Origin: Salinivirgaceae bacterium
GTDB taxonomy: Bacteria; Bacteroidota; Bacteroidia; Bacteroidales; SZUA-534
Length of the DNA stretch: 64,000 nt
Reading direction: 5' to 3'
Assembly: GCA_017527435.1 (NCBI GenBank)
Contig: JAFXQB010000001.1
Location: 4,696 to 68,695 of the forward strand
In this document: positions 3,001-61,336 of the stretch, piece after piece
Layout of the letters: every line of letters begins with the position of its first letter
Position numbering within the stretch: the first letter of the stretch is position 1
Made by a program: the position numbers and the translations under genes
The notes under the pieces: generated by a model
What the model saw: the letters and a program-made list of their open reading frames with translations, nothing else
Database searches by the model: none
Told to the model about the DNA's origin: nothing

Positions 3001-6000
3001 TGTATGGCATTTCTTACAGATATTTCTGCAGAGCCTTTACCTTCAATTGTGGTGGCGTTTGTTATTTTCGCCTTATTAAAATCAAATAACTGTTTTTCTG
3101 AGTTAATAGTTATAGTATTCATTCTATACCTAATGGAACCATTAATTCTAGGCTGATATGTTGCATTATTCTCTAATCCAACGAAACAAACAGTATTATC
3201 TTTTCCATTGTAATATTTTTCGTCTACCCATTCATAACTCTTTTTACTTTCATTATACTTCCACAACTCAACTTTTTGGGTAGTTCTGCTATCAAATTGT
3301 ATAATAACAACACCACCTTTTTCCGAACAATATGTGACAGACAATACTTGTGGTACTTTTAGGTCATTAAAATCAGGTCCATAATTCAGGGGAATAAGAT
3401 TGATAGTATTTTCGCCTTCTCCCGTAGTGCATTTTTGCCCATATCTGTCTGTAAGTGGTTCCCCTTCTTTATTTGTAACAACAGTTGTAGGCCATGTCCT
3501 TTTAAAATAAAGCACTCCACTAGGATCTTTTAGATTTGTTATTGCAAAACTTACGGGATTATTAAAATTAAACAATCTTGAGATTTTGTCATCCCCATCC
3601 ACATACGATTTATCAACGTCATTCTTCTTAAAATACATTATCGTTCCCATATCACGATATTCAGCTTCGACTTTGTATTTATATGGGGAAGTCTCTTTGT
3701 CATCACCAGTGTTTGGGTAGCCTGTCACTGTTACTGTATTGTCGAAAAACTGGGCTTCAACAAAAACATCGAATGTTGATTGAATACCCAAAACATCTGT
3801 TAATCTATATTTTTCCAAACAGTTTGTGGTTATTCCTTCTAATTTGTATCCATCTTTGTTGTCATCATTATAGTATTTATTACTTATTTTGGATCTTAAC
3901 TCGTTTGTCCATCTTGTTTTTACAATTCCTGGTGGCAATGTATTATCATCGACCATATTTTGGCGGTATTTTATTCCCGCTGATGTTTCATATACTACAT
4001 AATCCACGCTATCACTTCCAGCATATTTTATACTGCTTGGCTTTGCTGAAATATTTATCGGCACCGACTTCCCGTTATAGTTAATGCTATGGCCATCGTA
4101 ATATGCACAATTCAAATATTTATCTATTATTCCGCATTGAAAACCTGGCATCGGCGTAACACTTGATCCAATCATATCTATTAGATAAATTTCCTGCCTA
4201 TCGTCAATAGGATTACATTTACCTTCAACAATAAGTTTGTTACCATTACCCGCCATAAACGAATAATATTTATCTATATCATCGGGGATATTAAAACTTA
4301 AATTTATTGGACCTGGGACCTCTTTGCCTTGTTTTAATAATTCATTTCGATAACCATCATTAATATATGAATTGAAATACAAAGTTCCACTACTTGCAGA
4401 TATAGTAATATCATTAGCTGTTAAGGAATATTTGGTTGATCCATCGTCGTCAACAGCTTTGTTCGTATTATGAAGCGATATTTCTGAACCGTATTTCTCA
4501 GGAAGGTTATCTATTACAACAACATAATACTGAGGAGAATTTCCTCCAGGGATGTAAGTTGCATTGGAGAATACGAATATATATGCAGTTATTGTGGTAC
4601 CGTTTTTTTCGATATGTGTAAAAACCTGATTACCAGTATCTATTTTCTTGCACGTAATTTTTTGTACATTTTCTGAACCAATATATCTTTCAATCGTTTT
4701 TTTGGCATTACTCAACCAATTTGATTCTTTTCCTAAACAATATATCCTGCTAATAATTGAGTCTTTCGTTAAATTTTTTAATGCAGCATTTACACCGCCT
4801 TCTCCAAAATCTATGGGACTCAATCCTATATTTTCCTTTGCACGAAACGTCGTATCAACTTTATTATTGACCAATCGTTCTATTTTGTATGGGACACGAA
4901 AGTTTGGATCGGTGAATTTCAAATTTACATATGGACTATCCCCTATATTTGATCCTACTGCTTGTACTCCGACTGTATCCGGTTGACTTATATCTTCTTC
5001 ATATACATTTTTCATTTTTGGCATACAAAAATAGGTTTTCGCGTCTATCAATGCTTTTTCCTTATCATTAACTTGTAATTGTAATTTAAATGGGAACCGC
5101 CAAGGCCAAAGTATCTCATAAACTTTGTTGTTTTTGGAGTCTTTGTCGGCGTAGGGGAGGAATGGGTTTATTACAATAGGGTTCATATACATATTGACAT
5201 ACACATCCCCTCCATCAGGAGTTAATTCCGCTGCGGCATATTTATATCCATTTTTTCCACCTTCATTTTTAGGCAGGTATAGTCTAATCGTATCATTACT
5301 TCCTTTATAAGTTTTTTTATAAGCCACGTAAGAATAATCGGGGAGACTATTTAGGAACTGGATTTTCAGTGTTTTATTTTGGGTTTCGCTCGTATATGTG
5401 CCAAATTTCGTTGTTTTTAAAATGCGGATACAAATGTCTGCTCCAAGTACATCTTTACTTAACGCACTTTTTACGTCAGAATAATAAATGCTTATTGTTC
5501 CATTCGGGCCTATCGACCCTCGATATGACAAGTTTTTCCAGTTTGAACCATTATCTATACTACATTGCAATATACACGTTGTTTTTTCATTTACATAGTA
5601 ATCATTAATGCTTAGTTCTATTGGTTTATCTGTTGGAACATAATATTTATCAGTCTCATTTTGTACATAATCTGTATTGTTATCTTTTATCCTGTATTCC
5701 ATATTGAGTTGCGGTGGCAAATCAACGTAAGTATATATGTCTAACCTGTACGACTCTGTATGACCGGTTAATTTATTGCATTTGTGAGAATCTGAAAATT
5801 TAATGCTTTCGTTTTGTCCTATTTTGTTTAAAATAATTTCTTTAGATGGGTAAGCATCGTAATTTTTGATTTCTGCTTCTACTTTAATTCTTTTACCAAC
5901 AATTCCGTTTCCATACCCCATAGATATAAATCCCATATATGACGAACTTTTCCTGTATACTACTACATTTTCACTAATATTCGTTACTTTTAATTCATTT

Positions 6001-6155
6001 AAATATGGATCATCTTCGCCTTTACAATGATTGGCACCATCAAAATCATATTGAATAATTATTGGGCATTTCGGCCATATAGTCTGAGCGAATAACTGTT
6101 GCACACATGCCAAAACACAACAAAACACGAATACAATTCTATATTTCATAGTCAT
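1..6155 (-). CDS. giant secreted SprB-repeat cell-surface protein, first >2050 codons (3' end lies beyond window position 1)
   Basis: Not in the supplied ORF track because it has no stop inside the window. The minus frame (plus-strand triplets starting at positions divisible by 3) has no TTA/CTA/TCA wherever I checked: 1-120, 290-480, 1860-2000, 2860-2940, 3000-3060, 4080-4140, 5040-5100. No minus-strand sub-ORF is listed for 1-6299. ATG at 6155 (or 6149) gives MTMKYRIVFVFCCVLACVQQLFA|QT, a Sec signal peptide. SprB-type repeats by manual translation: AYCGSDGVIAVDISGGTAPY (408-467), AGSYTVYIKDTNDC (291-332), AGTYSLVVSDGSGC (54-95), AYTVTASQLNGYC (about 2868-2906). Confidence 0.8.
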   Translation of the reverse strand, partial: MTMKYRIVFVFCCVLACVQQLFAQTIWPKCPIIIQYDFDGANHCKGEDDPYLNELKVTNISENVVVYRKSSSYMGFISMGYGNGIVGKRIKVEAEIKNYDAYPSKEIILNKIGQNESIKFSDSHKCNKLTGHTESYRLDIYTYVDLPPQLNMEYRIKDNNTDYVQNETDKYYVPTDKPIELSINDYYVNEKTTCILQCSIDNGSNWKNLSYRGSIGPNGTISIYYSDVKSALSKDVLGADICIRILKTTKFGTYTSETQNKTLKIQFLNSLPDYSYVAYKKTYKGSNDTIRLYLPKNEGGKNGYKYAAAELTPDGGDVYVNMYMNPIVINPFLPYADKDSKNNKVYEILWPWRFPFKLQLQVNDKEKALIDAKTYFCMPKMKNVYEEDISQPDTVGVQAVGSNIGDSPYVNLKFTDPNFRVPYKIERLVNNKVDTTFRAKENIGLSPIDFGEGGVNAALKNLTKDSIISRIYCLGKESNWLSNAKKTIERYIGSENVQKITCKKIDTGNQVFTHIEKNGTTITAYIFVFSNATYIPGGNSPQYYVVVIDNLPEKYGSEISLHNTNKAVDDDGSTKYSLTANDITISASSGTLYFNSYINDGYRNELLKQGKEVPGPINLSFNIPDDIDKYYSFMAGNGNKLIVEGKCNPIDDRQEIYLIDMIGSSVTPMPGFQCGIIDKYLNCAYYDGHSINYNGKSVPINISAKPSSIKYAGSDSVDYVVYETSAGIKYRQNMVDDNTLPPGIVKTRWTNELRSKISNKYYNDDNKDGYKLEGITTNCLEKYRLTDVLGIQSTFDVFVEAQFFDNTVTVTGYPNTGDDKETSPYKYKVEAEYRDMGTIMYFKKNDVDKSYVDGDDKISRLFNFNNPVSFAITNLKDPSGVLYFKRTWPTTVVTNKEGEPLTDRYGQKCTTGEGENTINLIPLNYGPDFNDLKVPQVLSVTYCSEKGGVVIIQFDSRTTQKVELWKYNESKKSYEWVDEKYYNGKDNTVCFVGLENNATYQPRINGSIRYRMNTITINSEKQLFDFNKAKITNATTIEGKGSAEISVRNAIQDVTWTLNHKSESGEETSEKGNSLSLSELKANAYTVTASQLNGYCTTSKEFYINAPAIVGKIDIRQSNDTLYYSLVGDIDKNKLITDYYFKINKNKDSIATITKPVSNNTNYYILSDDNYRCGEYKIILVYKTNTPNDNKWKSWEVWNYNINYDELTKNYIINNYTLHHDTIYTIPYCYEDTLKLELKSNNENPNFRIDTSQQVSSDTLEKDDSVVFYKIANEELKADSKAEYTLKCDEVEAVTDEINVNNPNTSLMLDKVSYKSSHFDILFSRSKDYEITNLDKYRIDSLSAESPYKDFLCSYSTYADIEIKNIKGGFMGVEPFTDEWRTGKETESLYYILSFEGGDNSENDFSDKVFSINSRESTIYHSTNPGKYTIKIYDIVNGHTCDARQIDSKIITRPSEIVFAQFVPTDPICELTASGKIQIKASGGSVNGNGYKYCIDTIGLDYKWDTTKNEYGEIKQLWPTAPRNARMDSTIQTDMKIFGNLYPGKYRISVFDSKQCVLIKDDTLRQYHNPYVMAAHFDSVICYGEKNGQIIIDSVEGSYYTTYYQLFKCNEDGVYVPYRKDTINNSFVATIPTDSSSNDRTWKYYADTVKKRIPPLWEIDSLYKGYYKIALTDVNGCTTSVAERDLPFGEKSGKHYPIEVKEPERLQMSIIHQDTIIHEYGKKGGTVEVLVAGGNKGRFNIYIDSIVSDSMVGHAAWDIHETFKDIFMPDTTHKLYVQDHKECTDSVITGFMRQPDSPLMVEGIPHPAWCNGAEGSIKIIAKGGWGKYRYSCNLTGDTVAMRQPFDSVAASLTSDSIQVGGGLYVLTLIDSAGVMVYDTVLVTTPPALKADNLSRAAYCGSDGVIAVDISGGTAPYKIENDFGQETFRTAGGITAFSKSVSAGSYTVYIKDTNDCRFNVPVSIADSSVVVSIKRQYPTMRQYANGRLEAVAQRGHAPYTFLWTNRNTGETCANAVWNNVMAGTYSLVVSDGSGCEKDGEIAYLATNGDLPL

Positions 6156-6299
6156 AAATTACTCATTTGTTATATTATATCACGTTCATTTCTTTTTCGT
6201 TTTCATAAACGCACATTCTCTCACCTTGCAGATTATTTCGAAGTCGCATATACTAGTTGGTATTTCCCTTAGTTGTTTGTTCATCTGGATTCTTCTGTA

Positions 6300-9200
6300 T
6301 TAATATTCAATATCAATTCGCATGGAGCTTGTAACCAAACTCTTACCTAATAATTTATACTTAATAATTATTGGGTAATTTCCTCTTGTTAATATGGGAA
6401 AGTGTTCAACTGAAAACAGCTTGTCAATACCTTGAGTTTTTGTATGGCTGCGAACATAATTAGCCACTTCGGTTTTTATGTCACTCATTTCTTGGTCAAT
6501 ATATATGGAAATATTATTATTGTATGCCCCTAAATGATATCGCGAATTGAAAATGCCTGTTTCCAGTTCACTATCTGTCAGTTTTCTTTGACCATCAAGG
6601 AATCCAATATTTGCTATACCAATACTTGCGGGAGGCTCTTTATTGCCAACGATTTTTTCAACATCGGGATTTTCGTATAAGAATGGTGCAATACTATCGG
6701 TATACCATCTTGTGTTAGCATAATCAGGAGTCAAAATCATCAGATTTTTACCTTCATTATAATAATCGTGTTCTCGATAATCAATAATCTCCGGTTTAGT
6801 AGTTTTATCCGTAATGTTTGCTATAAGTTTAAATACTGGTCCTGCAATTTGCCAGCCACTATATTCTTCAACCTCAAATCCCTTCTCTATCTTATCTTTA
6901 AATGTTGTATATGAACTAGTCCTAAAGTTTGCTGCGTAAATCACTGTGGTTTCAAGCATTTCAATGGTGCCTTCGGCTGAGCGTGTGGTTTTCTCCATAT
7001 CGGAACGTGTATCCTCAATTTTTGCGCTGGTAGCTTTAATGTTGACATCGGTTTTTGTTACAATTTTTTGTGGAACGTTGACAATGGCAAGTTTGTATAT
7101 CTGGTCGGGGGCAAACTTAAGGCCTGCAGTGCTAGCGTATACTTCAAACTGCACAGCAGGATCAGTTGAAAGACGCGGCGGTGCGTAACTGAAACTAGTT
7201 GTTTGCGGTGTACCACCAAATGGAGTCAGTTGTAGCACCTGGTCGTAGCCTTCAGGCTTTTGTTCTTCGAAAAGATAGCTGTAGTCGTACTCCACAAGAA
7301 GGTAAACCTCTGAGTACTCACTGCTGTAGAAGTTATACTGGCGGTCGGCGGGATAACTATAGAGCACATGGTCCGGTATTATGTAGTCTGGCCTATTGCC
7401 CGAAGTGAATTCAACAGTTTTCTCCTCAATGCAGTCTGTGCCATCCTCATTCTTAACGGTTTCCCATTGGCTACCATTGAGTTTTTTAAACGATACTTTG
7501 GCCGTTACCTTGTGTTTTTTCTGGCTCTCGAGCGGCCTCTTCAGTTTGTAGGTGAATGTACGGTTGTCCTCACTTGCCATCATTGTAGCTTCCACTACCT
7601 TATTACCTCCTCCTTCTATGTTGGTTATTGTAAACTCATCAATGTCAATGCGATACAAGCAACCATCGTCAAGATTCATTTTCTGGTTAGCAGGCACGTT
7701 AAGCACAAGCTGCGGAGCAATAAACACATTCACATCTGTGCTGCCACCATCGGGGGTGAGTTGAGCAATCACATTCTCGCCAAAGGGACTTCCGCCAACC
7801 ATCTGGCAGGTATCGCCTATCTGGAAATCGAATGTGAATTTGCCTTTAACCAATCCCTTCATCACATCAAAATTACCTCCAATCATACCGCTGAAATAGA
7901 ATGGTTTTGGGCCTGCACCTGTCAGGTATGAAATCAATTCACCGTTGAAGATATTGAAATCGCGCGATTTCTTAAAAAGATTCACTTTCATTCCAACACT
8001 GGCCTTGCCATAAGCCCACGCTTGAGCTTGCGCATACCACCCATTAATTCCCACAGGGTCGCTCGAGCCTTTGCAGTGCACATTTGGGCCATAATTCTTC
8101 AGCAGAAACTCTGTGCCCATACCAAAGTTCAGAGTGGCGTAGAATGGCTTCAACGTGGCATCGAAACCGAGCGTCAGGCTCGAACCCATGGCAATGCCTT
8201 TGCCCTGGGCAAGCAGTCCGGCATCAGGTCGATTCTTAAGCTTGCTTTTTTGTTCTGTCGACAGAATACTGCTGTTCAAGATTTCATCAGGCAATGCAGG
8301 AATTCCGGGAATACTGTCACCCATCATAAAATAACTGCTGGTTTTGGCTATGCCAAGCAACTCAACACCACACCTTGCATCGGGCGTACCAATGCGGGTG
8401 TACCATGTGTTGTCAGATACATAGATGTTGGCATAACCCATCATATCGTTGTCGCCCGTGCCTCGCAGAAAACCGCCCACATTCAGGTATGCCTTTAAAT
8501 CCGAGGTGAAGACACTGTGCTGAATATCGAACATCATACCCATCGAAGCGCGCAGCACTCCGTCGCCTTTGGGCTTGTCAAGCTGGCTCTTGTCGAATTT
8601 CACAACACCCTTCGAAGCACCTTCAATCTTATCCATGTTGCTCTTTATGCTCTGAGCCAGGCCTGCGCCCAAATCCTTGCATACAAAGGTTGCGTCGCCG
8701 CGCAGCTGTATGAAGTTAACACCCCAGTCTTTGTTGAATTGTATTTCGAGCCCCACATCGGCGGCCATCAGTTTGTCGCTGCCCGAGAAGCCGAATTTGG
8801 TACGCGCCATCAGACCGATAGCCACGTCCTTGTCGGGTACATAATTGATTCCTGAAAGCGATTTTCCAAAATCACCACCCAAGCTGTTTTTCTTTTGCTG
8901 CATCTTGTAATAAAGGCCTCCGCCCACACCGTAGAAATTCAGGAACGATACTTTTACGCCGTTGGCTGGCTCGGTTTCAAGAAAAGCGTCGGTCAGGAAG
9001 TAGCGGTACTCGTCTTTTTTGCCGAAGACACCCACTGCCGCAACCTGCAGTTTGCCTTTCAGCAGCTTCATCTGCATGTCGCCGCGGAATCCTTTGCCAT
9101 AGACAGCATCGCCGCTCTTAAATTCCACGCCACCCGCTATTGAGAAGGCGCTCTGCTCATAGTTGACATTAATCTTGCCAACTTCGGCACTGCGGAATTT

Positions 9201-10910
9201 CCATTTATGCGAATCGCCATAAAGCTTGAGCCCCGCCTTGCCGGTGAATTTTTCAGTAACGTGCACTTCGGCGTCAACAGCCAGTCCGGCGCTTTCGCCT
9301 TTCTCGTCTTCAAAACTTTCAATTCCGTTTATCGTGAGCTGGAATCCGGCCACTTTGGGGGTCGTTAGTTTACCTGTCAGCCCCACATGCTCCAAATGAA
9401 ATTTCGTAGGGCTGATGGTCATTCCTTCAAAATTGATGTCGGGCAGAGTCATGTTGTTGTTGTCCTTCTGGTTACCGATGGCAGCATTAACCGATATTAT
9501 TCCGTTCAGACTTAGTTCGGGTTTAACCTTCGAGCTGTCAATTTCAACGGTGATGCGCGAGTCGGGAGTCAGCTTCAACGATCCGCTCAGCATTGGGAAA
9601 TCGGCAGTGTCGGGCAGAACGGCCTCAACCATGTATTTGTTTGCCGATACGTTAAGTTCGGCTTTGTAGTCGAGTAGCGATTTCTGTCCCAACGGCGGAG
9701 CATTGAGCTTGCCGCCAAACCCAACTCCTGAAATCTGATTCTGCAGAATGCCTATCTCAAAATCCTCGATACTGATGTCCCACGAGTTAGGGTCGATTGT
9801 GCCCGTTGCCACCACATTCTGCGCTGCGGCGTTGCACGAGAAGCCCGCTCCATCGATTATGACATTTGAAAGTGTGAGCTTTTTGCGCTCTTTCTTTTTT
9901 GTTTTGTCGTCCGGCTTCTGCTGGCTGGCTTGTGTTTGAGCCTGTGTCTGCTGGCCGTTTTGTGATTGCGCAGCGGATGCGTTGTCGCCGCTTCCCGACA
10001 TAAACTCGGGCAGCGTAACCTCTGCCTGGGTTACAGCAACACCACGCCACATGTTGCGGTCGTCGTCGGTGCCACCACTGAAATAGTTCTCAGGGAACTG
10101 CACCATTGCCGATGTTGATGTGTAACTCTGGTCGAGAGTAGCGCCGTTCAGCTGGAATATGTAATCGTTAAGCCCTTTGACAATAAATTGCTTGTCGAAA
10201 CCGAATGATACCGTATAATCGTCAATATCAACAATATCTGCTGACAAATCGGCTCTCAAACGTCCCGATGGTTTGCCCGAGCCGTCGATGGTTTGAATGG
10301 AGTTGCTTTTCAGAGCAAAGGCTATCTTTGCTGATAGCTTCTCAAAACCGTCGCAGCCAAACTCTACAGCAGTACCCGCCTTGAATATAACAGAAGCTTC
10401 ATTTCCCATTTTCCGCTCACAGGGGGCAGTCAGTTCAAGTCTTCCCTTTGTGCCCACACCATTTTGTCCTTCCACAATGGCGTCGCCGTCGAAGGCGAGC
10501 TTCTGTCCGTTGTCATTCAGCGGAATTATACACGATGCTTTCAGGTGTGAACGGCCTTGGTCGTCACTCACAATCTCGCTAATGCAGATGAGATATTTGT
10601 CAGCATCACCAATACCGACAGGCAGGCTCAGCTCGCTTTTTGTGAACAAATCAGACAGCGATTTCACCGTATTGCCCATTGCCTTCACACTCTCATACAC
10701 ACTCATGGCGCCATCCAGACGGCGCTTCTGATCATCGTTGAGGTTCAATGAGTCGAGCAGTTTCGACACAGCATCTGTGGCTTCTTTGGTAATAAAAGCT
10801 TTCGCATCTTCTGATATATCATTCTGTGCAAAAGCTTGATTAGTGCCCACAGAAAAAAACGACATGAAACATGCCGCAATCAGCACATACAATCTTTTCC
10901 CGAAAAACAT
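6300..10910 (-). CDS. large (1536 aa) secreted/envelope protein of unknown function, directly upstream of the SprB-repeat giant
   Basis: Track ORF 6300..10937 begins at TTG. The first ATG at 10910 gives MFFGKRLYVLIAACFMSFFSVGTNQAFA|Q, a signal peptide. The body is Gly- and beta-strand-rich. Q/K-rich low-complexity linker SGSGDNASAAQSQNGQQTQAQTQASQQKPDDKTKKKERKK at nt 9879-9998. I can name no family motif. Confidence 0.75.
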   Translation of the reverse strand: MFFGKRLYVLIAACFMSFFSVGTNQAFAQNDISEDAKAFITKEATDAVSKLLDSLNLNDDQKRRLDGAMSVYESVKAMGNTVKSLSDLFTKSELSLPVGIGDADKYLICISEIVSDDQGRSHLKASCIIPLNDNGQKLAFDGDAIVEGQNGVGTKGRLELTAPCERKMGNEASVIFKAGTAVEFGCDGFEKLSAKIAFALKSNSIQTIDGSGKPSGRLRADLSADIVDIDDYTVSFGFDKQFIVKGLNDYIFQLNGATLDQSYTSTSAMVQFPENYFSGGTDDDRNMWRGVAVTQAEVTLPEFMSGSGDNASAAQSQNGQQTQAQTQASQQKPDDKTKKKERKKLTLSNVIIDGAGFSCNAAAQNVVATGTIDPNSWDISIEDFEIGILQNQISGVGFGGKLNAPPLGQKSLLDYKAELNVSANKYMVEAVLPDTADFPMLSGSLKLTPDSRITVEIDSSKVKPELSLNGIISVNAAIGNQKDNNNMTLPDINFEGMTISPTKFHLEHVGLTGKLTTPKVAGFQLTINGIESFEDEKGESAGLAVDAEVHVTEKFTGKAGLKLYGDSHKWKFRSAEVGKINVNYEQSAFSIAGGVEFKSGDAVYGKGFRGDMQMKLLKGKLQVAAVGVFGKKDEYRYFLTDAFLETEPANGVKVSFLNFYGVGGGLYYKMQQKKNSLGGDFGKSLSGINYVPDKDVAIGLMARTKFGFSGSDKLMAADVGLEIQFNKDWGVNFIQLRGDATFVCKDLGAGLAQSIKSNMDKIEGASKGVVKFDKSQLDKPKGDGVLRASMGMMFDIQHSVFTSDLKAYLNVGGFLRGTGDNDMMGYANIYVSDNTWYTRIGTPDARCGVELLGIAKTSSYFMMGDSIPGIPALPDEILNSSILSTEQKSKLKNRPDAGLLAQGKGIAMGSSLTLGFDATLKPFYATLNFGMGTEFLLKNYGPNVHCKGSSDPVGINGWYAQAQAWAYGKASVGMKVNLFKKSRDFNIFNGELISYLTGAGPKPFYFSGMIGGNFDVMKGLVKGKFTFDFQIGDTCQMVGGSPFGENVIAQLTPDGGSTDVNVFIAPQLVLNVPANQKMNLDDGCLYRIDIDEFTITNIEGGGNKVVEATMMASEDNRTFTYKLKRPLESQKKHKVTAKVSFKKLNGSQWETVKNEDGTDCIEEKTVEFTSGNRPDYIIPDHVLYSYPADRQYNFYSSEYSEVYLLVEYDYSYLFEEQKPEGYDQVLQLTPFGGTPQTTSFSYAPPRLSTDPAVQFEVYASTAGLKFAPDQIYKLAIVNVPQKIVTKTDVNIKATSAKIEDTRSDMEKTTRSAEGTIEMLETTVIYAANFRTSSYTTFKDKIEKGFEVEEYSGWQIAGPVFKLIANITDKTTKPEIIDYREHDYYNEGKNLMILTPDYANTRWYTDSIAPFLYENPDVEKIVGNKEPPASIGIANIGFLDGQRKLTDSELETGIFNSRYHLGAYNNNISIYIDQEMSDIKTEVANYVRSHTKTQGIDKLFSVEHFPILTRGNYPIIIKYKLLGKSLVTSSMRIDIEY

Positions 10911-11045
10911 TGTTATATATGTGTATGAATGGGGCAATCCCCATCGTTATTAATCAAACAAACTGCACTTTTGCCGCCTTGCTAAAAAGCCGATGAATCA
11001 TATACTTCGAATCGGCGCCATCTCCCCTGGAAATGCATGAATTTT

Positions 11046-11053: not shown

Positions 11054-11352
11054 GTCAATTATATAATATCACCAACATTCCAAGCGTTTTTTTATGACAT
11101 GTCATGTGATTTTTTATGACAACACAACTGTTTTTTCGAAAGATTTGATACCAAAATTGATTACCGGGATTTTGACACAATCCACTTGCCCCTTCCCCCA
11201 CCCCATTCCGTAATTCACGTAAATAGCCGCGGCGGGTACACCTATAACAAATAAAAGTTAGTTTTGCGGAATTGTGAAATTGGCTGCGGTGGCACTTTGC
11301 TGGCTGGCCAATTTCAAAGGTTTTTGAACATATCAATTTGAATTACAATAAA

Positions 11353-12945
11353 ATGGACAAGCAGTTACTATTAGGTGCCGAAGCGGTTGCCGTGGGTGCA
11401 ATCGATGCGGGCATTTCTGGCGTCTACGCCTATCCTGGCACGCCGTCGACAGAAATAACAGAATTCATTCAGAAATCGAAGGACGCGCAGAGCCGCAAAA
11501 TCCGCTCGAAATGGGCGGCCAACGAGAAGACGGCCTACGAAGCCGCGCTCGGAATGTCGTTTGCGGGCAAGCGCAGCATTGTGTGTATGAAGCACGTGGG
11601 CCTGAACGTCTGCGCCGACCCGTTTATGAACTCGGCCATTACGGGCGTCAACGGCGGCCTGATTCTGGTGGTTGCCGACGACCCGTCGATGCACTCTTCG
11701 CAAGACGAGCAGGACTCGCGCGCCTACGGACGCTTTGCGATGCTGCCGCTGCTTGAGCCCGCAACCCAACAGGAAGCCTACGATGCCGTCCGCTTTGGAC
11801 TAGACCTGTCGGAAGCAGTGAAACTGCCTGTTGTTCTGCGTCTTACAACACGTATGTCGCACTCGCGCGCCGTTATTGAGCGCAAAGCGATGCGCGACCA
11901 AAACGCCTTCAACCCCGATGTGAACACGCGTCAGTGGATTCTGCTGCCTGCAATCGCCAAAAAGAACTACGCAGGACTGATTGACAAGCAGACGGCAATC
12001 GAGAAATCGTCGGCCGAGTCGCCGTTCAACAAGGTTGTCGAGGGCAAGGGCAAGAAGGCCGTTATCGCCTTCGGCATTGGCTACAACTACGTGATGGAAG
12101 TCTGCAAGACCAACAACCTTGAGTTGCCCGTTCTCAAGATTTCGCAATATCCGCTGCCCAAAGATATGGTGCAGTCGTTTATCGATAAATACGATGATAT
12201 TCTGATAGTTGAGGAAGGTTACCCGATTTACGAGGAACTGCTTCGCGGATTCTCTGACAACAAGAAATTCCGTGGCCGCCTTGACGGCGCTCTGCCGCGA
12301 ATGGGCGAACTCTCGCCCGACGCCGTGGCACCCGCGCTTGGCGTGAAACCAGTTGTGGGTCAGCCTGTTCCCGACATTATGGTGAACCGCCCGCCCGCAC
12401 TCTGCGTGGGCTGCAGCCACCGCGACCTGTACGAGGAACTGAACAGCGTGCTGTCGGCCTATCCTGGCAAGGCTGTGTTCGGCGACATTGGCTGCTACAC
12501 TCTCGGCGCTCTGCCCCCCTACTCGGCAATCAACTCGTGTGTGGATATGGGCGCGTCGATAACAATGGCCAAAGGTGCCGCCGAAGCGGGTCTGCACCCT
12601 GCTGTGGCCGTGATTGGCGACTCAACCTTCACCCATTCGGGAATGACGGGTCTGCTCGACTGCGTCAACGACAACGTGCAGGTAACTATCATTATTTCAG
12701 ACAATTCGACAACCGCAATGACAGGCGGTCAGGACTCGGCAGGAACCAACAAGATGGTGGATATCTGCAAGGGCCTGGGCGTTGAGCCTGAGCACATTGT
12801 AACGATTGTCCCCGTCAAACCGCGCCTTGAGCAGAATATCGAAATCATTAAGAAAGAGATTGATTACAAGGGCGTTTCGGTTATTCTTGCACAACGCGAG
12901 TGTATGCAGACGCTGGCACGGAAGAAGAAAGCGGCGAAGAAATAA
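11353..12945 (+). CDS. iorA: indolepyruvate:ferredoxin oxidoreductase, alpha subunit
   Basis: Track ORF starts at TTG 11338; first ATG is 11353 (MDKQLLLGAEAVAVGAIDAGISGVYAYPGTPSTEI). TPP-type motifs GDIGCYTLGA and GDSTFTHSG, Cys cluster CVGCSHRD, followed by iorB. Confidence 0.85.
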   Translation: MDKQLLLGAEAVAVGAIDAGISGVYAYPGTPSTEITEFIQKSKDAQSRKIRSKWAANEKTAYEAALGMSFAGKRSIVCMKHVGLNVCADPFMNSAITGVNGGLILVVADDPSMHSSQDEQDSRAYGRFAMLPLLEPATQQEAYDAVRFGLDLSEAVKLPVVLRLTTRMSHSRAVIERKAMRDQNAFNPDVNTRQWILLPAIAKKNYAGLIDKQTAIEKSSAESPFNKVVEGKGKKAVIAFGIGYNYVMEVCKTNNLELPVLKISQYPLPKDMVQSFIDKYDDILIVEEGYPIYEELLRGFSDNKKFRGRLDGALPRMGELSPDAVAPALGVKPVVGQPVPDIMVNRPPALCVGCSHRDLYEELNSVLSAYPGKAVFGDIGCYTLGALPPYSAINSCVDMGASITMAKGAAEAGLHPAVAVIGDSTFTHSGMTGLLDCVNDNVQVTIIISDNSTTAMTGGQDSAGTNKMVDICKGLGVEPEHIVTIVPVKPRLEQNIEIIKKEIDYKGVSVILAQRECMQTLARKKKAAKK

Positions 12946-13097
12946 GGAATGTGTAAAGAGTAAAGGTAAAAGAGTAAAGGCCAAAGAGTTACGAATTATG
13001 AATTACGAACTGATTTCACAAACGTTAATCATTACTCATTAAACATTACACTTTACTCAAAATCAATCAAAAATCGAAAATCAAAAATCGTAAGTAT
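12946..13097 (+). repeat. composite strand-asymmetric intergenic element (copy A) between iorA and iorB
   Basis: 12946-12980 has no C (35 nt, GTAAAG/AGTAAAGG words). The core carries CGAATTATGAATTACGA (12992-13008). 13025-13075 has no G (51 nt). Collinear exact blocks are shared with 38257-38424: a 17-mer, AATCATTAC and ACACTTTACTCAA. Confidence 0.7.
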
Positions 13098-13664
13098 ATG
13101 GAAAGAAACATAATAATTGCAGGCGTTGGCGGACAGGGAATTCTGACCATTGCCACAATTCTGGATATGGCTGCAATGCACGCTGGGCTGAACATTAAGC
13201 AGGCCGAGGTGCACGGAATGAGCCAACGCGGCGGCGAGGTGCAGACTCACCTGCGCATTGCCGACGGCCAAATCTTCTCTGACCTGATTCCAATGGGCCA
13301 AGCCGACCTGATTCTGTCGGTTGAGCCACTCGAGTCGCTTCGCTATCTGCCTTATCTGAAGAAAGATGGCGCAATTGTAACTTCCGACGAGCCGTTCAAA
13401 AACATTGGCAACTACCCCGATGAGCAGAAGGTGCTCGACACCGTCCGCAAATCGGCCGAGAACGTGGTGTTTGTTGATGCCACAAAGATTGCCAACGAGT
13501 TGGGCAACCCCAAATCGTACAACATTGTGATGCTGGGTGCCGCAGCGCGGTTCATTGGCATTAGCAACGCCGATTTTGAGTGGGCCATTGGCAACCTGTT
13601 CGGCTCAAAAGGCCAGGAAGTGGTTGATTTGAACATAAAAGCATTTTACGCAACTACTAAATAA
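13098..13664 (+). CDS. iorB: indolepyruvate:ferredoxin oxidoreductase, beta subunit
   Basis: MERNIIIAGVGGQGILT...HGMSQRGGEV, typical of the 2-oxoacid:ferredoxin oxidoreductase gamma-type/IorB subunit; 188 aa. Confidence 0.85.
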   Translation: MERNIIIAGVGGQGILTIATILDMAAMHAGLNIKQAEVHGMSQRGGEVQTHLRIADGQIFSDLIPMGQADLILSVEPLESLRYLPYLKKDGAIVTSDEPFKNIGNYPDEQKVLDTVRKSAENVVFVDATKIANELGNPKSYNIVMLGAAARFIGISNADFEWAIGNLFGSKGQEVVDLNIKAFYATTK

Positions 13665-13674
13665 TCAAATCGTT

Positions 13675-14979
13675 ATGGAATATTGGAACCAACGAATAGA
13701 GTGTATGGAACGCACCGAGATGCGTGCCCTGCAAACCGAACGCCTGAAACGTGTGGTTGACCGCGTCTATCACAACTGCCAGCCATACCGCGAGCGTATG
13801 CAGGCCGCAGGCGTCAAACCTTCTGACATTCAATCGATTGACGACATTTGCAAACTGCCGTTCACTTCGAAGAAAGACCTGCGCGACTACTATCCGTGGG
13901 GGCTGTTGAGTTCGCCGCTGTCGGACATTGTGAAGATTCACGCTTCGTCGGGAACCACGGGCAAGCCGATTGTGGTTGGCTACACCCGCAACGACATTGC
14001 CGACTGGGCCGAAGCGGGCGCCCGCTGCCTGACGGCTTACGGCCTTGGCAAAGACGATGTGATTCAGGTGTCGTACGGCTACGGACTGTTCACTGGCGGC
14101 CTTGGCGCTCACGATGCATCAATGAACATTGGCGCCGTCACCATCCCAACATCGGCGGGAAACACCGAGAAGCAGCTGCTGCTTATGCACGACCTTGGCA
14201 CAACCGCCCTGGCCTGCACACCATCGTACGCGCTCTATCTGTCGGAATCGCTTGAGAAATCGGGCATTCCGCGCAACGAGATAAAACTGAAAGTGGGCAT
14301 CTTCGGCGCCGAACCGTGGACCGAGGAAATGCGCAAAGAGATTGAATACCGCTTGGGAATCAAGGCATACGACATCTACGGCCTGACCGAGATTTCGGGC
14401 CCTGGCGTCGGATTTGAGTGCGAATGCCAGAACGGCACTCATTTGAGCGAGGATTTGTTCTATCCCGAAATCATCAATCCCGAAACGGGCGAGGTTCTGC
14501 CCGACGGACAAGAGGGCGAGTTGGTTTTCACCACGCTCAACAAAGAGGGAATGCCGCTCATCCGCTTCCGCACCCGCGATATTACCAGCATCACACACGA
14601 GCGCTGCGCCTGCGGCCGCACACTGGCCAAAATGTCGCGCATCCTTGCCCGCACCGACGATATGCTTATCATCCGCGGTGTGAACGTCTTCCCGTCGCAG
14701 GTCGAGGCTGTGCTCTGCACTCTGAAAGAGGTTGAGCCGCACTTCTTCATCACTGTGGACCGCGTCAACAACACCGACACATTCGACATCGACGTTGAAG
14801 TGAAAGAAGAGTTCTATTCTGATATGATGAGCGAGATGGAAAAACTGCGCAAGAAGATTGCTCACGCCATCCAAAGCGTTGTCGGCATCCAGCCGAACAT
14901 CCGCCCCGTGGCACCGAACACCATCGAGCGCAGCCAGGGCAAGGCTAAACGGGTTCTGGATAAGAGGAAGTTTAAGTAA
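13675..14979 (+). CDS. paaK: phenylacetate-CoA ligase
   Basis: 434 aa; adenylate-forming motifs HASSGTTGKPIVV and YGLTEISGPG; classic neighbour of iorAB. Confidence 0.85.
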   Translation: MEYWNQRIECMERTEMRALQTERLKRVVDRVYHNCQPYRERMQAAGVKPSDIQSIDDICKLPFTSKKDLRDYYPWGLLSSPLSDIVKIHASSGTTGKPIVVGYTRNDIADWAEAGARCLTAYGLGKDDVIQVSYGYGLFTGGLGAHDASMNIGAVTIPTSAGNTEKQLLLMHDLGTTALACTPSYALYLSESLEKSGIPRNEIKLKVGIFGAEPWTEEMRKEIEYRLGIKAYDIYGLTEISGPGVGFECECQNGTHLSEDLFYPEIINPETGEVLPDGQEGELVFTTLNKEGMPLIRFRTRDITSITHERCACGRTLAKMSRILARTDDMLIIRGVNVFPSQVEAVLCTLKEVEPHFFITVDRVNNTDTFDIDVEVKEEFYSDMMSEMEKLRKKIAHAIQSVVGIQPNIRPVAPNTIERSQGKAKRVLDKRKFK

Positions 14980-15023
14980 AAGTTTAGATGGTTAGAAGTT
15001 TAGAGTTTAGTTCTATAGCTATA
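14980..15023 (+). other. C-free, stop-codon-dense tail after paaK plus TATAGCTATA palindrome
   Basis: 14980-15012 contains no C (33 nt). TAG occurs in all three frames (14985, 14993, 15001, 15008). 10-nt palindrome at 15014-15023. Confidence 0.6.
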
Positions 15024-15026
15024 AAT

Positions 15027-15058
15027 GAAAAACGGCAGCCGAGTGGTTGCCGTTTTTG
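15027..15058. terminator. bidirectional intrinsic terminator between paaK and the SPFH gene
   Basis: A-run, then stem ACGGCA (15032-15037) / TGCCGT (15048-15053), then T-run. Confidence 0.6.
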
Positions 15059-21203: not shown

Positions 21204-21242
21204 CCTAATTCTAACTCCTAATTCCTAACTTCTAAATAATAA
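21204..21242 (-). other. C-free tail (on the transcript strand) after the methyltransferase stop
   Basis: The plus strand at 21204-21242 has no G (39 nt; CTAA/TCCTAA words). It sits immediately 3' of the minus-strand stop at 21243-21245. Confidence 0.6.
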
Positions 21243-21947
21243 CTACGCTAAAATAGCAAAAATTGCTGGACGTTTGTGCAAATCGGGCTTATGTTTTGGC
21301 CATTCGGCGATGCGAAGGGTGAGCACGAACTCGGTTTCGAGCGTCAAATCGGCGGCGATGCACAGGCGCGTCTCGGGGTGCAGATTCTGCATAAAGTCCT
21401 CAAAGAGAGCCATATTGCGGTAGGGCGCCTCGATAAAAAGTTGCGTCTGGTGCTCGGTTTGCGAGCGTTTCTCGTAGTTGCGGATGGCACGGATACGTTC
21501 GGGCTGTTTGACAGGCAGATAGCCGTTGAATGCGAAATTCTGGCCGTTGAGCCCCGAAGCCATCATTGCAAGAATTATCGACGACGGCCCCGACATTGGC
21601 ACCACGCGAATGCCCTTTCGGTGAGCCATTGCCACCACTGCGTTTCCTGGGTCGGCAACGGCTGGCGCGCCCGCTTCCGACATCAGCCCCACGTGCTCGC
21701 CGCGCTCACAGGCGTCGAGATACTGCCCAATGGTTGTCAGGTCGGTATGCTCGTTAAGTTCCACAAAATCAGAGTCGTCTATCGGGAAACTGGGGTCGAT
21801 GGCGCGCAGAAAACGACGGGCCGTGCGCGTGTTCTCGACCACGAAATGGCGCAACTGGGCCGCCACGCCCAACACCTTGGCTGGAATGACATCGGCTGGC
21901 TGCTGCTCGCCTAACGTTGTGGGTATCAGGTAAAGATTGCCTTTCAT
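21243..21947 (-). CDS. SAM-dependent methyltransferase, tetrapyrrole-methylase fold (RsmI/YraL-like)
   Basis: Track start 21971 is TTG; ATG 21947 gives MKGNLYLIPTTLGE.... The profile is typical of the short TP-methylase family. Confidence 0.6.
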   Translation of the reverse strand: MKGNLYLIPTTLGEQQPADVIPAKVLGVAAQLRHFVVENTRTARRFLRAIDPSFPIDDSDFVELNEHTDLTTIGQYLDACERGEHVGLMSEAGAPAVADPGNAVVAMAHRKGIRVVPMSGPSSIILAMMASGLNGQNFAFNGYLPVKQPERIRAIRNYEKRSQTEHQTQLFIEAPYRNMALFEDFMQNLHPETRLCIAADLTLETEFVLTLRIAEWPKHKPDLHKRPAIFAILA

Positions 21948-22086
21948 TGTTGTTGATTTGCTTTCGGACAAAGTTAGAAAATTATTATAAGGGGCTGAAT
22001 GTTGATTTTTCTCGCACTGACGACACTGATTGAACGGATTTCACAGATTGATAGTTTTCGCGCAATAGTATGACAACGGCGAGCAT

Positions 22087-22837: not shown

Positions 22838-22929
22838 TTCATCACAAAAACACCAAATGAATTACCACAAAAACACCGAATGAATTACCACAAAAACACC
22901 GAATGAATTACCACAAAAACACCGAATAG
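22838..22929 (+). repeat. 23-bp tandem repeat, about 4 copies (ATTACCACAAAAACACCGAATGA)
   Basis: Exact copies at 22861-22883 and 22884-22906. Copy 22907-22929 differs in the last 2 nt. Degenerate copy at 22838-22860 (19/23). Confidence 0.9.
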
Positions 22930-22954: not shown

Positions 22955-22962
22955 TATATTTG
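22955..22962 (+). promoter_or_regulatory. candidate -7 box TATATTTG for the ATPase gene
   Basis: Matches TAnnTTTG and is followed by C; 24 nt before ATG 22987. Confidence 0.45.
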
Positions 22963-24372: not shown

Positions 24373-25140
24373 ATGAAAGTAACTTTTTTAGGTACGGGGG
24401 CGTCGCACGGCATTCCGATTGTGGGATGCAAATGCTCTGTGTGTCAGTCGGTTAACCCGAAGGACAAGCGGCTGCGCAGTTCGGTTTACATTGAAACCGA
24501 AGGGCGCCATCTGCTCATCGACCCTGGGCCCGACCTGCGGCAAGCGGCTCTGCGCGAAGGCTTTACGCAGATTGACGCCGTGCTCATAACCCACGAGCAC
24601 AAAGACCACACCGCCGGCATCGACGACATCCGCACCTTTAACTATATAATGCGCCGCGCCATTCCGTTCTACGCTCAGCCGCGCGTCACCGACACCATCC
24701 GCCGCGAGTACGCCTACGCCTTCAGCGAGCCGCATTACCCTGGCGCACCGCAGATTGAACTTCACCCGATTGGCAACGAACCGTTTGATGTTCAGGGTAT
24801 TACGGTAACGCCGATAAACGTTCTGCACGGCACGCTGCCCACCACGGGCTTCCGCATCGGGCAGTTTGCCTACATCACCGACGCCAAAACCATCGCCGAC
24901 AGCGAGATGGCCAAACTGCAAGGTCTTGACACATTGGTTATCAACGCCTTGCGCATTGAGCAGCACCCCGCGCATTTGAGTCTTGGCGAAGCACTCGACA
25001 TTATCTGTCAACTGAAACCGCGTTGCGCCTATCTGACTCACTTGAGCCACAAAATACCCGTCTACGACGAACTGATTAAAATGCTGCCCGACAATGTTTT
25101 GCCGGCTTACGACGGACTGAAGATAAGGATTGAAGGATAG
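24373..25140 (+). CDS. MBL-fold metallo-hydrolase (PhnP-like phosphodiesterase family)
   Basis: HxHxDH motif THEHKDHTAG; N-terminal CxxC pair GCKCSVCQS. Confidence 0.75.
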   Translation: MKVTFLGTGASHGIPIVGCKCSVCQSVNPKDKRLRSSVYIETEGRHLLIDPGPDLRQAALREGFTQIDAVLITHEHKDHTAGIDDIRTFNYIMRRAIPFYAQPRVTDTIRREYAYAFSEPHYPGAPQIELHPIGNEPFDVQGITVTPINVLHGTLPTTGFRIGQFAYITDAKTIADSEMAKLQGLDTLVINALRIEQHPAHLSLGEALDIICQLKPRCAYLTHLSHKIPVYDELIKMLPDNVLPAYDGLKIRIEG

Positions 25141-25204
25141 AAGGATTGAATAACTGAAGGATTGAATGATTGAAGTCCCGATAGCTATCGGGATGAAGGA
25201 TTGA
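25125..25204 (+). repeat. AAGGATTGA reiteration flanking an 18-bp perfect palindrome
   Basis: Exact AAGGATTGA at 25125, 25141, 25157 and 25196. The first copy lies inside the last codons of the MBL gene. Palindrome TCCCGATAGCTATCGGGA at 25176-25193. The related word AAGGATTG recurs at 44206-44213. Confidence 0.8.
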
Positions 25205-25225
25205 AAACAATTTAAATACCGAATA

Positions 25226-38256: not shown

Positions 38257-38424
38257 ATAATGGTATTGGGTGTTAGGTGTTTGGTATTAGTGGATTTAGA
38301 ATTTCGAATTATGAATTACGAGTTACGAACAAGAATCATTACACCTTAAACTTTACACTTTACTCAACCTTTTAAACTCTAAACTTCCAAACTTAATACT
38401 TCTAAAACTTAAAACTCATAAATT
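38257..38424 (+). repeat. composite strand-asymmetric intergenic element (copy B)
   Basis: 38257-38304 has no C (48 nt). Core CGAATTATGAATTACGA at 38305-38321. 38334-38426 has no G (93 nt). TAAACTCTAAACTTC (38373-38387) is the exact reverse complement of 14995-15009. Confidence 0.7.
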
Positions 38425-38712
38425 ATGGCAAGCAAAAGACAACTTAAAGGCGACATCACTTTCATTGTCAAAGAAATGGTTAGCGAATGTATTGCATACA
38501 CAATGATGGTTCCGAACGTTGACATCAAGGCCACCGAGGACCTGATAAACGACATTCTGGATTATTACGGCAAGGCTCTGGCCGACATCAACGCTGCTCG
38601 CAAGGTCGCAGCAGGCGAGCGCGGCGACAACCTGAAAGCCATCCGCAACGACGCCCGTCAGAAGGTGACAGAATTCGTTGGACGCATGGCAAAACTCAGC
38701 GAAAGCAAATAA
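38425..38712 (+). CDS. small hypothetical protein (95 aa)
   Basis: Clean ORF starting at ATG, with composition like its neighbours. No motif recognised. Confidence 0.4.
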
Positions 38713-44202: not shown

Positions 44203-44255
44203 TTGAAGGATTGTAGTAATTGTGTTTCAAAGTTCGATTCACCGATTCACCGATT
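44203..44255 (+). other. C-free tail after lepB plus CGATTCAC tandem
   Basis: 44203-44227 has no C (25 nt, contains AAGGATTG). 8-nt unit CGATTCAC repeated about 2.6 times at 44235-44255. Confidence 0.6.
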
Positions 44256-59351: not shown

Positions 59352-59390
59352 TGCTTATAAAAGTTTAGGGTTATATAATAAGTGAGAAAG

Positions 59391-61299: not shown

Positions 61300-61336
61300 G
61301 TAGAGACGCGGCGCGCCACGTCTCTACGGTTTGTTT
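61300..61336 (+). terminator. intrinsic terminator after folE
   Basis: GTAGAGACG (61300-61308) / CGTCTCTAC (61319-61327), followed by GGTTTGTTT. Confidence 0.65.

Follow-up and report, generated by a model that had tools for sequence, protein, structure and literature searches.

What is a 152-nucleotide (nt) stretch of strand-asymmetric DNA doing between the genes for the two subunits of one enzyme? The question is raised by the iorA-iorB junction of a Salinivirgaceae bacterium (Bacteroidota; Bacteroidales), which lies in the 64,000-nt stretch of DNA that we analyzed and refer to as the window (assembly GCA_017527435.1, contig JAFXQB010000001.1, positions 4,696 to 68,695 of the forward strand). 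The spacer, here termed E1, runs from 12946 to 13097, between the TAA stop codon of iorA (12943-12945) and the iorB ATG at 13098. On balance, we read E1 as a hypervariable mosaic of degenerate heptanucleotide tandem repeats, i.e., a long simple sequence repeat (SSR) or variable-number tandem repeat (VNTR), that was inserted into an originally tight or overlapping gene junction. E1 is neither a conserved structured RNA nor an element peculiar to iorAB, and it is probably not a regulator of aromatic amino acid metabolism.

Heptad organization of the spacer and its second copy

A preliminary description of this DNA, made from its letters alone, had divided the spacer into three blocks. All three were found on rereading the sequence: 35 nt without a C directly after the iorA stop (12946-12980), a core containing CGAATTATGAATTACGA (12992-13008), and 51 nt without a G ahead of iorB (13025-13075). 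The C-free run really begins at 12936, within iorA, and totals 45 nt. By composition alone, the antisense of this left arm is G-free over 35 to 45 nt and 34% C. The G-free arm is an inverted relative of the left-arm words, and only 3 G occur in the last 35 nt of the iorB leader. Pfam upheld the gene names that had been proposed, namely, iorA (11338-12945, with TPP and POR domains), iorB (POR domain), and paaK next downstream, as well as the TP_methylase, MBL, NA37/ndpA-like, and S26/lepB genes elsewhere in the window.

The 7-nt periodicity of the spacer, its second copy, and its strong variability between strains were not seen in that description. The whole of E1 is one degenerate array of ~22 heptads, with the 7-nt register kept from stop to start. 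When E1 is written in rows of seven, 59% of bases match the base 7 nt upstream, and the autocorrelation reaches z = 8.2 at lag 7 and z = 6.6 at lag 14. Tandem Repeats Finder (TRF) reported period-7 arrays at 12953-12979, 12989-13009, 13025-13059, and 13065-13089 and a period of 14 at 12955-12989. Along the spacer the units form a gradient, from G-only heptads (GTAAAGA, GTAAAGG) through mixed ones (GTTACGA, ATTACGA) to C-only heptads (CATTACT, CTTTACT, AATCAAA); the mixed units in the middle are GARTTAY and carry both G and C. Both TRF and the lag-7 signal place E1 among intergenic heptameric SSRs/VNTRs, which consist of at least three head-to-tail 7-nt units.

The preliminary description would have been undone by the absence of related elements elsewhere. 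A second copy, E2, is present in the window between the ndpA-like gene and a short open reading frame (ORF), orf95 (Table 1). E2 has the same order as E1: a C-free block of 48 nt made of GGTGTTA heptads (38257-38304), a core (38305-38321), and a G-free block of 91 nt (38334-38424). It is also periodic (lag-7 z = 8.9, lag-14 z = 5.7). The two copies have in common the exact 17-mer CGAATTATGAATTACGA and, at 91% identity, a 34-nt block of the G-free arm of E1. The adjoining orf95 (38425-38712) is a conserved 95-codon ORF directly upstream of thrS-infC-rpmI-rplT. It had no Pfam match, is identical in at least seven contigs, and shows 89% nucleotide identity in a Salinivirgaceae metagenome-assembled genome (MAG).

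We then looked at the core across genomes. The 17-mer occurs in at least 120 species-level genomes, with hosts among Bacteroidota, Cyanobacteria, Chloroflexota, Planctomycetota, Fibrobacterota, lineages of the candidate phyla radiation (CPR), and ANME-1 archaea. By our own arithmetic ~70 matches are expected by chance in 596 Gb; therefore, the match count alone is uninformative. The surroundings of the matches say more: 97 of the 120 matches listed lie in TRF-detectable (AATTACG)n arrays. Arrays of (GAATTAY)n, intermixed with the related units GAATTAG, GAATTAA, and GAGTTAC, are spread over more than 15 phyla and at least 97 species-level genomes, ANME-1/Methanophagales archaea among them (loci L001-L120). 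A common layout between codirectional genes is stop-(GAATTAC)n-loop-(GTAATTC)n-start. A literature search for the string GAATTACGAATTAC found nothing.

Strain variation and ancestral state of the junction

The preliminary description had proposed a comparison of orthologous iorA-iorB junctions. We made it on ten contigs that encode 100% identical IorB; the comparisons between strains are not phylogenetically independent. These contigs match the window at 98 to 100% identity in iorB DNA and at 92 to 100% over the final 600 nt of iorA. The spacer, by contrast with IorB, is not conserved: its length is 142, 145, 149, 152, 159, 159, 205, 229, 238, or 238 nt, and at least four types cannot be aligned with each other. 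Even the iorA stop codon (TAA, TAG, or TGA) varies with the allele.

Two kinds of change separate the alleles: 7 or 14 nt have been gained or lost, or the sequence has been replaced outright by other modules, namely, different heptads, GTAG-headed GC hairpins, and a tiny palindrome. Type A, to which the window belongs, has alleles of 145, 152, or 159 nt. One extra GARTTAC unit in the core accounts for +7 (strains L202, L208, and L210), and the loss of TAAAAGAGTAAAGG from the left arm only accounts for -14 (L208). The other types start with (TTAGGAA)n right after a TAG stop and, ahead of the ATG, finish with (AAAATCR)n or (ATTCACC)n heptads, which are poor in G. They carry GTAG-headed GC palindromes, GTAGGGACGCGATTAATCGCGTCC and GTAGGGACGTGGCGTGCCGCGTCC, which were found in alleles B, C, and D. 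The type-C alleles (L204 and L206) have the same iorB leader heptads as the window and are otherwise unrelated to it. Copy number steps of one unit between close relatives, the hallmark of a VNTR, were seen in type A, in E2, and in the array at the end of paaK. For E2 the length is 168 or 175 nt, one strain (L213) having an extra AACTTAA unit (+7). In L109, a MAG labeled Salinivirgaceae (Bacteroidales) whose flanking ORF is 89% identical, the GAATTAY core of E2 is expanded to 20 units or more, and the contig breaks off within this array. Two mini-ORFs that can be read off E1 (ATGTGTAAAGAGTAA and ATGAATTAC...TAA) are broken up in this expanded array and were therefore treated as noncoding.

For the ancestral state, we turned to 66 metagenomic loci whose IorB is 52 to 62% identical. 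The iorA-iorB gap is 27 nt or less in 54 of these 66 relatives, with an ATGA overlap in 25. The spacer is therefore derived, having been inserted in this lineage at a junction where the two genes were once coupled. Heptads are again abundant in several of the few long gaps among the relatives (L125, L157, L160, and L174).

We propose that the array would grow and shrink by slipped-strand mispairing and would be exchanged by recombination, with no sequence-specific job for iorAB. In this gut or rumen Bacteroidales, a two-subunit enzyme operon tolerates 142 to 238 nt of interchangeable repeat DNA between its cistrons, which argues that translation of iorB is independent of coupling to iorA. No intrinsic terminator (GC-rich hairpin plus U run) was found in 12946-13097, and a sigma-70 promoter scan of E1 gave no promoter-like site, although the model does not cover Bacteroidetes promoters. 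Because the spacer holds neither kind of site, iorB would be cotranscribed with iorA and translated independently. There are practical consequences as well: such arrays break assemblies (as in the L109 contig), can supply stop codons and protein C termini, and serve as strain markers.

The GTAG-headed GC palindromes also have relatives outside the junction. The forms GTAGAGACGCGGCGCGCCACGTCTCTAC and GTAGGGACGCG..CGCGTCC occur at 61300-61327 of the window and in the spacers of L201, L204, L206, and L209. A 2013 survey of tagged repetitive extragenic palindromic (REP) sequences listed Bacteroidetes with CGTC-type repeats only (PMC3733652).

The region upstream of iorA is a hotspot of gene-content change among the strains with identical IorB. 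It holds a Cas9-Cas1 locus in L204, an integrase/relaxase/MobC element in L202, and SOD and GH43 genes in L201, L205, and L207. Giant proteins are encoded there in L203, L206, L208, and the window, with an SprB-like protein in L203.

Strand polarity at gene boundaries and its possible causes

Polarity relative to gene ends is already published for G-rich heptamers, and E1 joins a known kind of intergenic repeat from cyanobacteria, Xanthomonas, and some Bacteroidetes. GGGAATC heptamers in Xanthomonas and GGGGAYT heptamers in Nostoc PCC 7120 were described by Rehm et al. (2015; PMC4692102). Both lie at distances of 0 to 50 bp from genes, on the coding strand downstream of stops and on the noncoding strand upstream of starts. 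These repeats occur in inverted pairs, can overlap stop codons, and include an array between pecE and pecF; length and sequence vary strongly between close relatives, no function was identified, and G-quadruplexes (G4) were discussed (PMC4692102). E1 likewise consists of tandem 7-nt intergenic units with the same polarity, inside an operon and between subunit genes. Unlike the published repeats, its units are degenerate and graded, its host is a gut/rumen Bacteroidales, and it has no G tracts and no G4: no GGG occurs in 12946-13097, whereas at least four tracts of three or more G are needed.

A second comparison is with the TAACTGA heptamers of Beggiatoaceae, Cyanobacteria, and a few Bacteroidetes (MacGregor 2015, PMC4679880). 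These lie a few nucleotides upstream of starts, replacing the Shine-Dalgarno (SD) sequence, show 7-nt indels between strains, include a reverse-orientation set after a stop, and stand beside other heptamers in Bacteroidetes. E1 similarly adjoins a start codon and changes in 7-nt steps. However, those arrays repeat one conserved unit, TAACTGA, in which G and C each occur once, while E1 has many units sorted by G versus C and no TAACTGA. The short tandemly repeated repetitive (STRR) heptanucleotides of heterocystous cyanobacteria (Mazel et al. 1990, as cited in PMC4692102) and the long SSRs of Mrazek et al. (2007), as summarized in the same source, form a third group; the STRR1 unit CCCCAGT was recovered in our Nostocales loci L014 and L025. 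E1 shares with this group short tandem heptamers concentrated in noncoding DNA and differs in its units. We know of no gene-end polarity described for STRR repeats or long SSRs.

We examined period-7 and period-8 arrays with a clear G or C excess in many phyla (~200 loci). Of the stop-adjacent arrays, 24 had a G-rich and 5 a C-rich coding strand; of the start-adjacent ones, 23 had a C-rich and 6 a G-rich coding strand (Fisher P = 4e-6, or 7e-5 without the arrays of the window itself). Adding arrays that had been absorbed into called ORFs left the result unchanged (29:8 and 32:11). All seven skewed arrays of the window obey this polarity, which is the one reported by Rehm et al., i.e., G-rich on the coding strand after stops and on the noncoding strand before starts. 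The polarity depends on distance: by hand count, 39 arrays conformed and 4 did not within 30 nt of a gene, compared with 8 and 7 beyond. As a control, the orientation of the G/C-balanced GAATTAY 17-mer showed no preference relative to genes (50 versus 42). Units that cannot form quadruplexes obey the rule, so the polarity is independent of G4 potential. These data extend the published polarity to such units and to many phyla and thereby remove the only rationale so far offered for it.

Within the window, the first 35 nt past the stop on the sense strand contain at most one C at 6 of 32 gene ends (iorA, paaK, methylase, MBL, ndpA-like, and the gene at 57954-59351), against a background of 3.2% among intergenic 35-nt windows (P = 4.6e-4). 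At none of the 32 ends do the same 35 nt contain at most one G. Five of the six genes for which a C-free 3' end had been claimed are thus at one C or fewer, the sixth, lepB, having two; with lepB, seven gene 3' ends in the window start C-poor. A simple count of runs of 25 nt or more, as proposed in the preliminary description, did not bear out an enrichment: 7 C-free runs compared with 4.65 ± 1.8 and 12 G-free runs compared with 9.0 ± 2.5 in within-spacer dinucleotide shuffles, neither being significant. Since the spacers are AT-rich, such runs are not above the shuffles, and we used tests of anchoring and orientation in place of run counting. Six of the seven C-free runs start 0 to 3 nt from a gene boundary. 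What goes beyond chance is anchoring at gene boundaries, orientation, and periodicity, not the number of runs. Many of the plus-strand G-free runs of the window lie within two large ORFs and reflect coding composition rather than repeats.

On the start side, the likely cause of the polarity is selection. No ATG, GTG, or TTG occurs in the 60 nt before iorB or before orf95, compared with a window mean of 2.8. Among start-adjacent arrays, the coding strand carries 0.46 start triplets, which would be 2.05 if the arrays were inverted (P = 1e-5), and the trend extends to G/C-balanced arrays (20 versus 8). A repeat without G has no room for AUG, GUG, or UUG decoys or for SD-like motifs, and its pairing is limited to weak A-U pairs. 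In Bacteroidetes, initiation regions are poor in AUG and little structured according to Baez et al. (2019; PMC6847099), whose proposed model, "30S binding ... and lateral diffusion," has the subunit bind an unstructured stretch and then diffuse laterally to the start. By its sequence, the iorB leader fits that description: like the SD-independent initiation regions of Bacteroidetes (PMC6847099; Jha et al. 2021, PMC7797042), the G-free arm is AUG-depleted, A-rich, and weakly structured, although the published regions are ~20 to 30 nt of unique sequence and those described here are 51 to 91 nt of tandem repeats. The G-free half thus plausibly serves as a decoy-free, open leader for independent translation of iorB, an open landing pad from which SD-blind Bacteroidota ribosomes would be led to the first AUG. 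Of the four roles put forward in the preliminary description, a G-free leader for SD-less initiation is the best supported, and this links repeat orientation to SD-independent start selection in a testable manner. In our model, the strand asymmetry of E1 would simply be the general polarity of skewed heptad arrays, acting only within ~30 nt of a gene.

The stop side is different. A second proposed role, pads of stop codons in all three frames, did not hold for iorA, where only two of three frames are closed within 40 nt after the gene. It also failed as a general rule: among 90 stop-adjacent arrays, 1.84 frames are closed in the coding orientation and 1.73 in the inverted one, with 31 arrays favoring the former and 32 the latter. 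The avoidance of C after stops is the one point of wider interest left by this analysis.

Several observations weigh against reading E1 as a repeat mosaic whose polarity is explained by start selection. The polarity at stops is as strong as that at starts, yet stop codons fail to explain it. E2 is nearly invariant among seven strains, and its right arm is kept in the species whose flanking gene is only 89% identical, which is more conservation than pure junk predicts. Variants of the paaK array have lost 7 nt and gained several substitutions, none of which adds a C, pointing to a real constraint on C. As inverted copies, the two arms of E1 match each other significantly, and a hairpin or cruciform may therefore have been involved in its origin or have a role. 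Array-free spacers show no G-C skew after stops or before starts; the repeats therefore do not amplify a general bias, and amplified background skew was rejected as a candidate. In addition, gene ends in the comparison loci come from an ORF heuristic rather than annotation, and loci L001-L120 were chosen for containing the heptad motif.

These points leave room for a broader reading, to which we give a small chance. In it, skewed heptad arrays would obey one chirality at every gene boundary in many phyla, the strand read outward being C-free at stop and start alike, with neither G4 potential nor stop-codon enrichment. This could point to an unrecognized conserved process that reads or writes the repeats, e.g., a repeat-generating activity or an RNA-level hand-over of ribosome or polymerase between cistrons. 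If so, the iorA-iorB spacer would be one working case of an unrecognized boundary process.

A filter by termination factor Rho has about the same slim prospects; an antisense Rho utilization (rut) site was among the roles put forward in the preliminary description. Such a site takes up ~70 to 80 nt of unstructured RNA that is rich in C and poor in G. C-free outgoing RNA would lack a rut site, so that operon transcription continues, while G-free incoming RNA with spaced YC dinucleotides would let Rho remove antisense and untranslated sense transcripts. Such a filter would cover both gene ends with one rule. Across 151 arrays within 30 nt of a gene end, G was rarer than C on the strand reading into the gene at stops (64 versus 17) and at starts (47 versus 11), and TC dinucleotides were in roughly threefold excess on that strand (means of 3.3 to 3.5, compared with 1.0 to 1.2 on the other). 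Cyanobacterial arrays conformed poorly in a small sample (4 versus 5, hand count), and cyanobacteria are not known to have Rho. However, all but one of the cyanobacterial violators lie 46 to 289 nt from genes. Moreover, Rehm et al. found this polarity in Nostoc PCC 7120 as well, across 89 repeats (PMC4692102). The Rho model sits awkwardly with a cyanobacterial case of this kind. On the sense operon RNA, the G-free arm ahead of iorB would likewise act as a rut site.

A purely mutational origin is a little less credible still. Here both the arrays and their polarity would come from events at the DNA level, such as inverted duplication or template switching and then slippage, and neither RNA nor translation would be under selection. 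Polymerase slippage has been invoked to explain the excess of heptamers among bacterial SSRs (Mrazek 2007, as cited in PMC4692102); stops and starts show polarity of equal strength, so that a single chirality explains both; and the arms of E1 are inverted. On the other hand, the disappearance of the polarity beyond ~30 nt (39:4 versus 8:7 in the hand count above) ties it to coding boundaries, start triplets are avoided in G/C-balanced arrays as well, and no DNA process with such chirality is known.

We consider it similarly improbable that E1 is an RNA element akin to REPs or bacterial interspersed mosaic elements (BIMEs). Its arms would pair in the operon mRNA, and the hairpin would guard the iorA part from 3' exonucleases or direct processing, setting the IorA:IorB ratio. 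The complementary arm words on which the preliminary description had based a long RNA hairpin are real: the best inverted match, which is internal to E1 (12950-12977 and 13032-13059), is 22 of 28 nt, whereas 300 arm-wise shuffles averaged 15.4 and never exceeded 20 (P < 0.003). Other genomes have many inverted pairs of the form (GAATTAC)n...(GTAATTC)n in the gap from a stop to a start, e.g., between apparent accB and accC (judged from flanking translation) in Polaribacter L001, and also in L009, L082, and L084. The alternative alleles L204, L206, and L209 hold GTAG-tagged GC hairpins with fold z of -3.2 to -4.4, like the REPs of PMC3733652, and GTAG REPs can provide a stop codon (Di Nocera et al. 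2013, PMC3733652). E1 resembles REPs/BIMEs, GTAG palindromes (PMC3733652), and REP doublets forming hairpins (REPINs; PMC3116915) in being a strain-variable intergenic mosaic at gene 3' ends and inside operons.

The window's allele, unlike these elements, has neither a GTAG tag nor a stable palindrome. Its predicted fold was no more stable than dinucleotide shuffles (z = -0.43 and -0.58), and the four values for type-A alleles were -0.43, -0.58, +0.61, and -0.69. For E2, z was +1.05 and +0.37, and its arms showed no significant complementarity (18 of 28, P = 0.28). The indels confined to one arm (L208) are uncompensated, and no covariation was seen. On these fold scores and one-arm indels, the long RNA hairpin was rejected. 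Rfam 15 gave nothing at the gathering score across the window and nothing at E ≤ 1 in 12800-13250. No stable palindrome of 20 to 40 nt and no GTAG or CGTC tag was found in 12946-13097; nor did E1 show the terminal inverted repeats or flanking target duplication of a miniature inverted-repeat transposable element (MITE), and no empty-site allele was found, the other alleles being replacements. Of the REP/MITE-like role first suggested, the mosaic of repeated intergenic modules stands, with E2 as its second copy, whereas excess structure, terminal repeats, target duplication, and compensating arm changes are all lacking in this allele.

We also give little credence to the heptads as a protein-binding array, in which a protein that binds RNA or DNA (bS1, a cold-shock protein [Csp], an RNA recognition motif [RRM] protein, or a regulator) would occupy the repeated units multivalently and control how the neighboring gene is translated or transcribed. 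S1, Csp, or CsrA has been proposed for the TAACTGA repeats (MacGregor, PMC4679880), and a Nostoc preprint ties heptamers to recF/recO regulation. The vocabulary GAATTAC, GAATTAG, and GAATTAT recurs across many phyla, and the paaK-array variants remain C-free. However, strains with identical flanking proteins use wholly different heptads at one site, and different sites in one genome use different units, which makes a specific binder unlikely. Least probable of all is a contingency locus in which spacer slippage reversibly tunes IorB translation, and hence aromatic keto-acid metabolism, within populations: 7-nt allele steps within one species and variable units in the iorB leader fit it, but arrays flank housekeeping genes of all kinds (the thrS operon, lepB, and the methylase), degenerate units lower slippage rates, and Rehm et al. 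decided against it likewise for their repeats (PMC4692102).

Other arrays and neighboring features of the window

The other C-poor trailers are also periodic, with units of 7 or 8 nt at the paaK, methylase, and MBL ends by autocorrelation and TRF (Table 1). The paaK-end array is followed by CTATAGCTATAA and an intrinsic-terminator-like hairpin at ~15033-15056. The TP_methylase gene occupies 21243-21971 on the minus strand, and its C-free heptads come directly after the stop.

Table 1. Positions of the spacer blocks and of related arrays in the 64,000-nt window
Feature	Position	Strand	Description
E1 C-free arm	12936..12980	+	last iorA codons and TAA, then GTGTAAA GAGTAAA GGTAAAA GAGTAAA GG
E1 mixed G+C core	12981..13024	+	heptads GAGTTAC GAATTAT GAATTAC GAA at 12986-13009
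E1 G-free arm	13025..13075	+	heptads TTACTCA TTAAACA TTACACT TTACTCA AAATCAA
iorB leader	13062..13097	+	(AAAATCR)n heptads, A-rich, directly 5' of the iorB ATG
Second copy E2	38257..38424	+	between the ndpA-like stop (38256) and the orf95 ATG (38425)
paaK-end array	14957..15012	+	C-free (AAGTTTAG)n overlapping the paaK stop (14977-14979)
TP_methylase-end array	21204..21242	-	(AATTAGG / GAGTTAG)n, sense strand C-free, lag-7 z = 5.9
MBL-end octamer array	25118..25205	+	(AAGGATTG)n overlapping the MBL stop (25138-25140), lag-8 z = 4.9
lepB end	44203..44255	+	C-free 25 nt past the stop (TTGAAGGATTGTAG...), then (CGATTCAC)2.6
End of gene 57954-59351	59355..59390	+	C-free 36 nt, then a terminator-like hairpin

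The last codons and the stop of the MBL gene, whose Pfam matches include Anti-Pycsar_Apyc1, are supplied by the repeat array. In an allele with a different array (L219), the MBL protein has 254 residues instead of 255.

The MBL-end array is interrupted at 25176-25193 by the perfect 18-nt palindrome TCCCGATAGCTATCGGGA, with TGAAG on both flanks. The same palindrome occurs in the iorA-iorB spacer of L205 (~9908-9925) and in the E2 of L109 (~6778-6795) and is absent from the L219 MBL-end allele. This pattern of occurrence suggests a tiny mobile element with repeat arrays as its targets. Small dispersed repeats (SDRs) embedded in heptamer arrays of Nostoc were reportedly described by Elhai et al. 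in 2008. The palindrome is similar to them in lying inside an octamer array and differs from them in phylum and sequence and in being absent from the window's E1.

Two further features stand apart from the gene-end arrays. In a divergent intergenic region at 22843-22927, the 23-nt unit CACAAAAACACCGAATGAATTAC is repeated 3.7 times at 98% identity, directly upstream of the start of an AAA_14/DUF4143 gene at 22960. The first part of the window (1-10937) is a low-GC block, with 37 to 46% GC compared with ~50 to 55% in neighboring genes, and contains two very large minus-strand ORFs of more than 2051 and 1545 amino acids.

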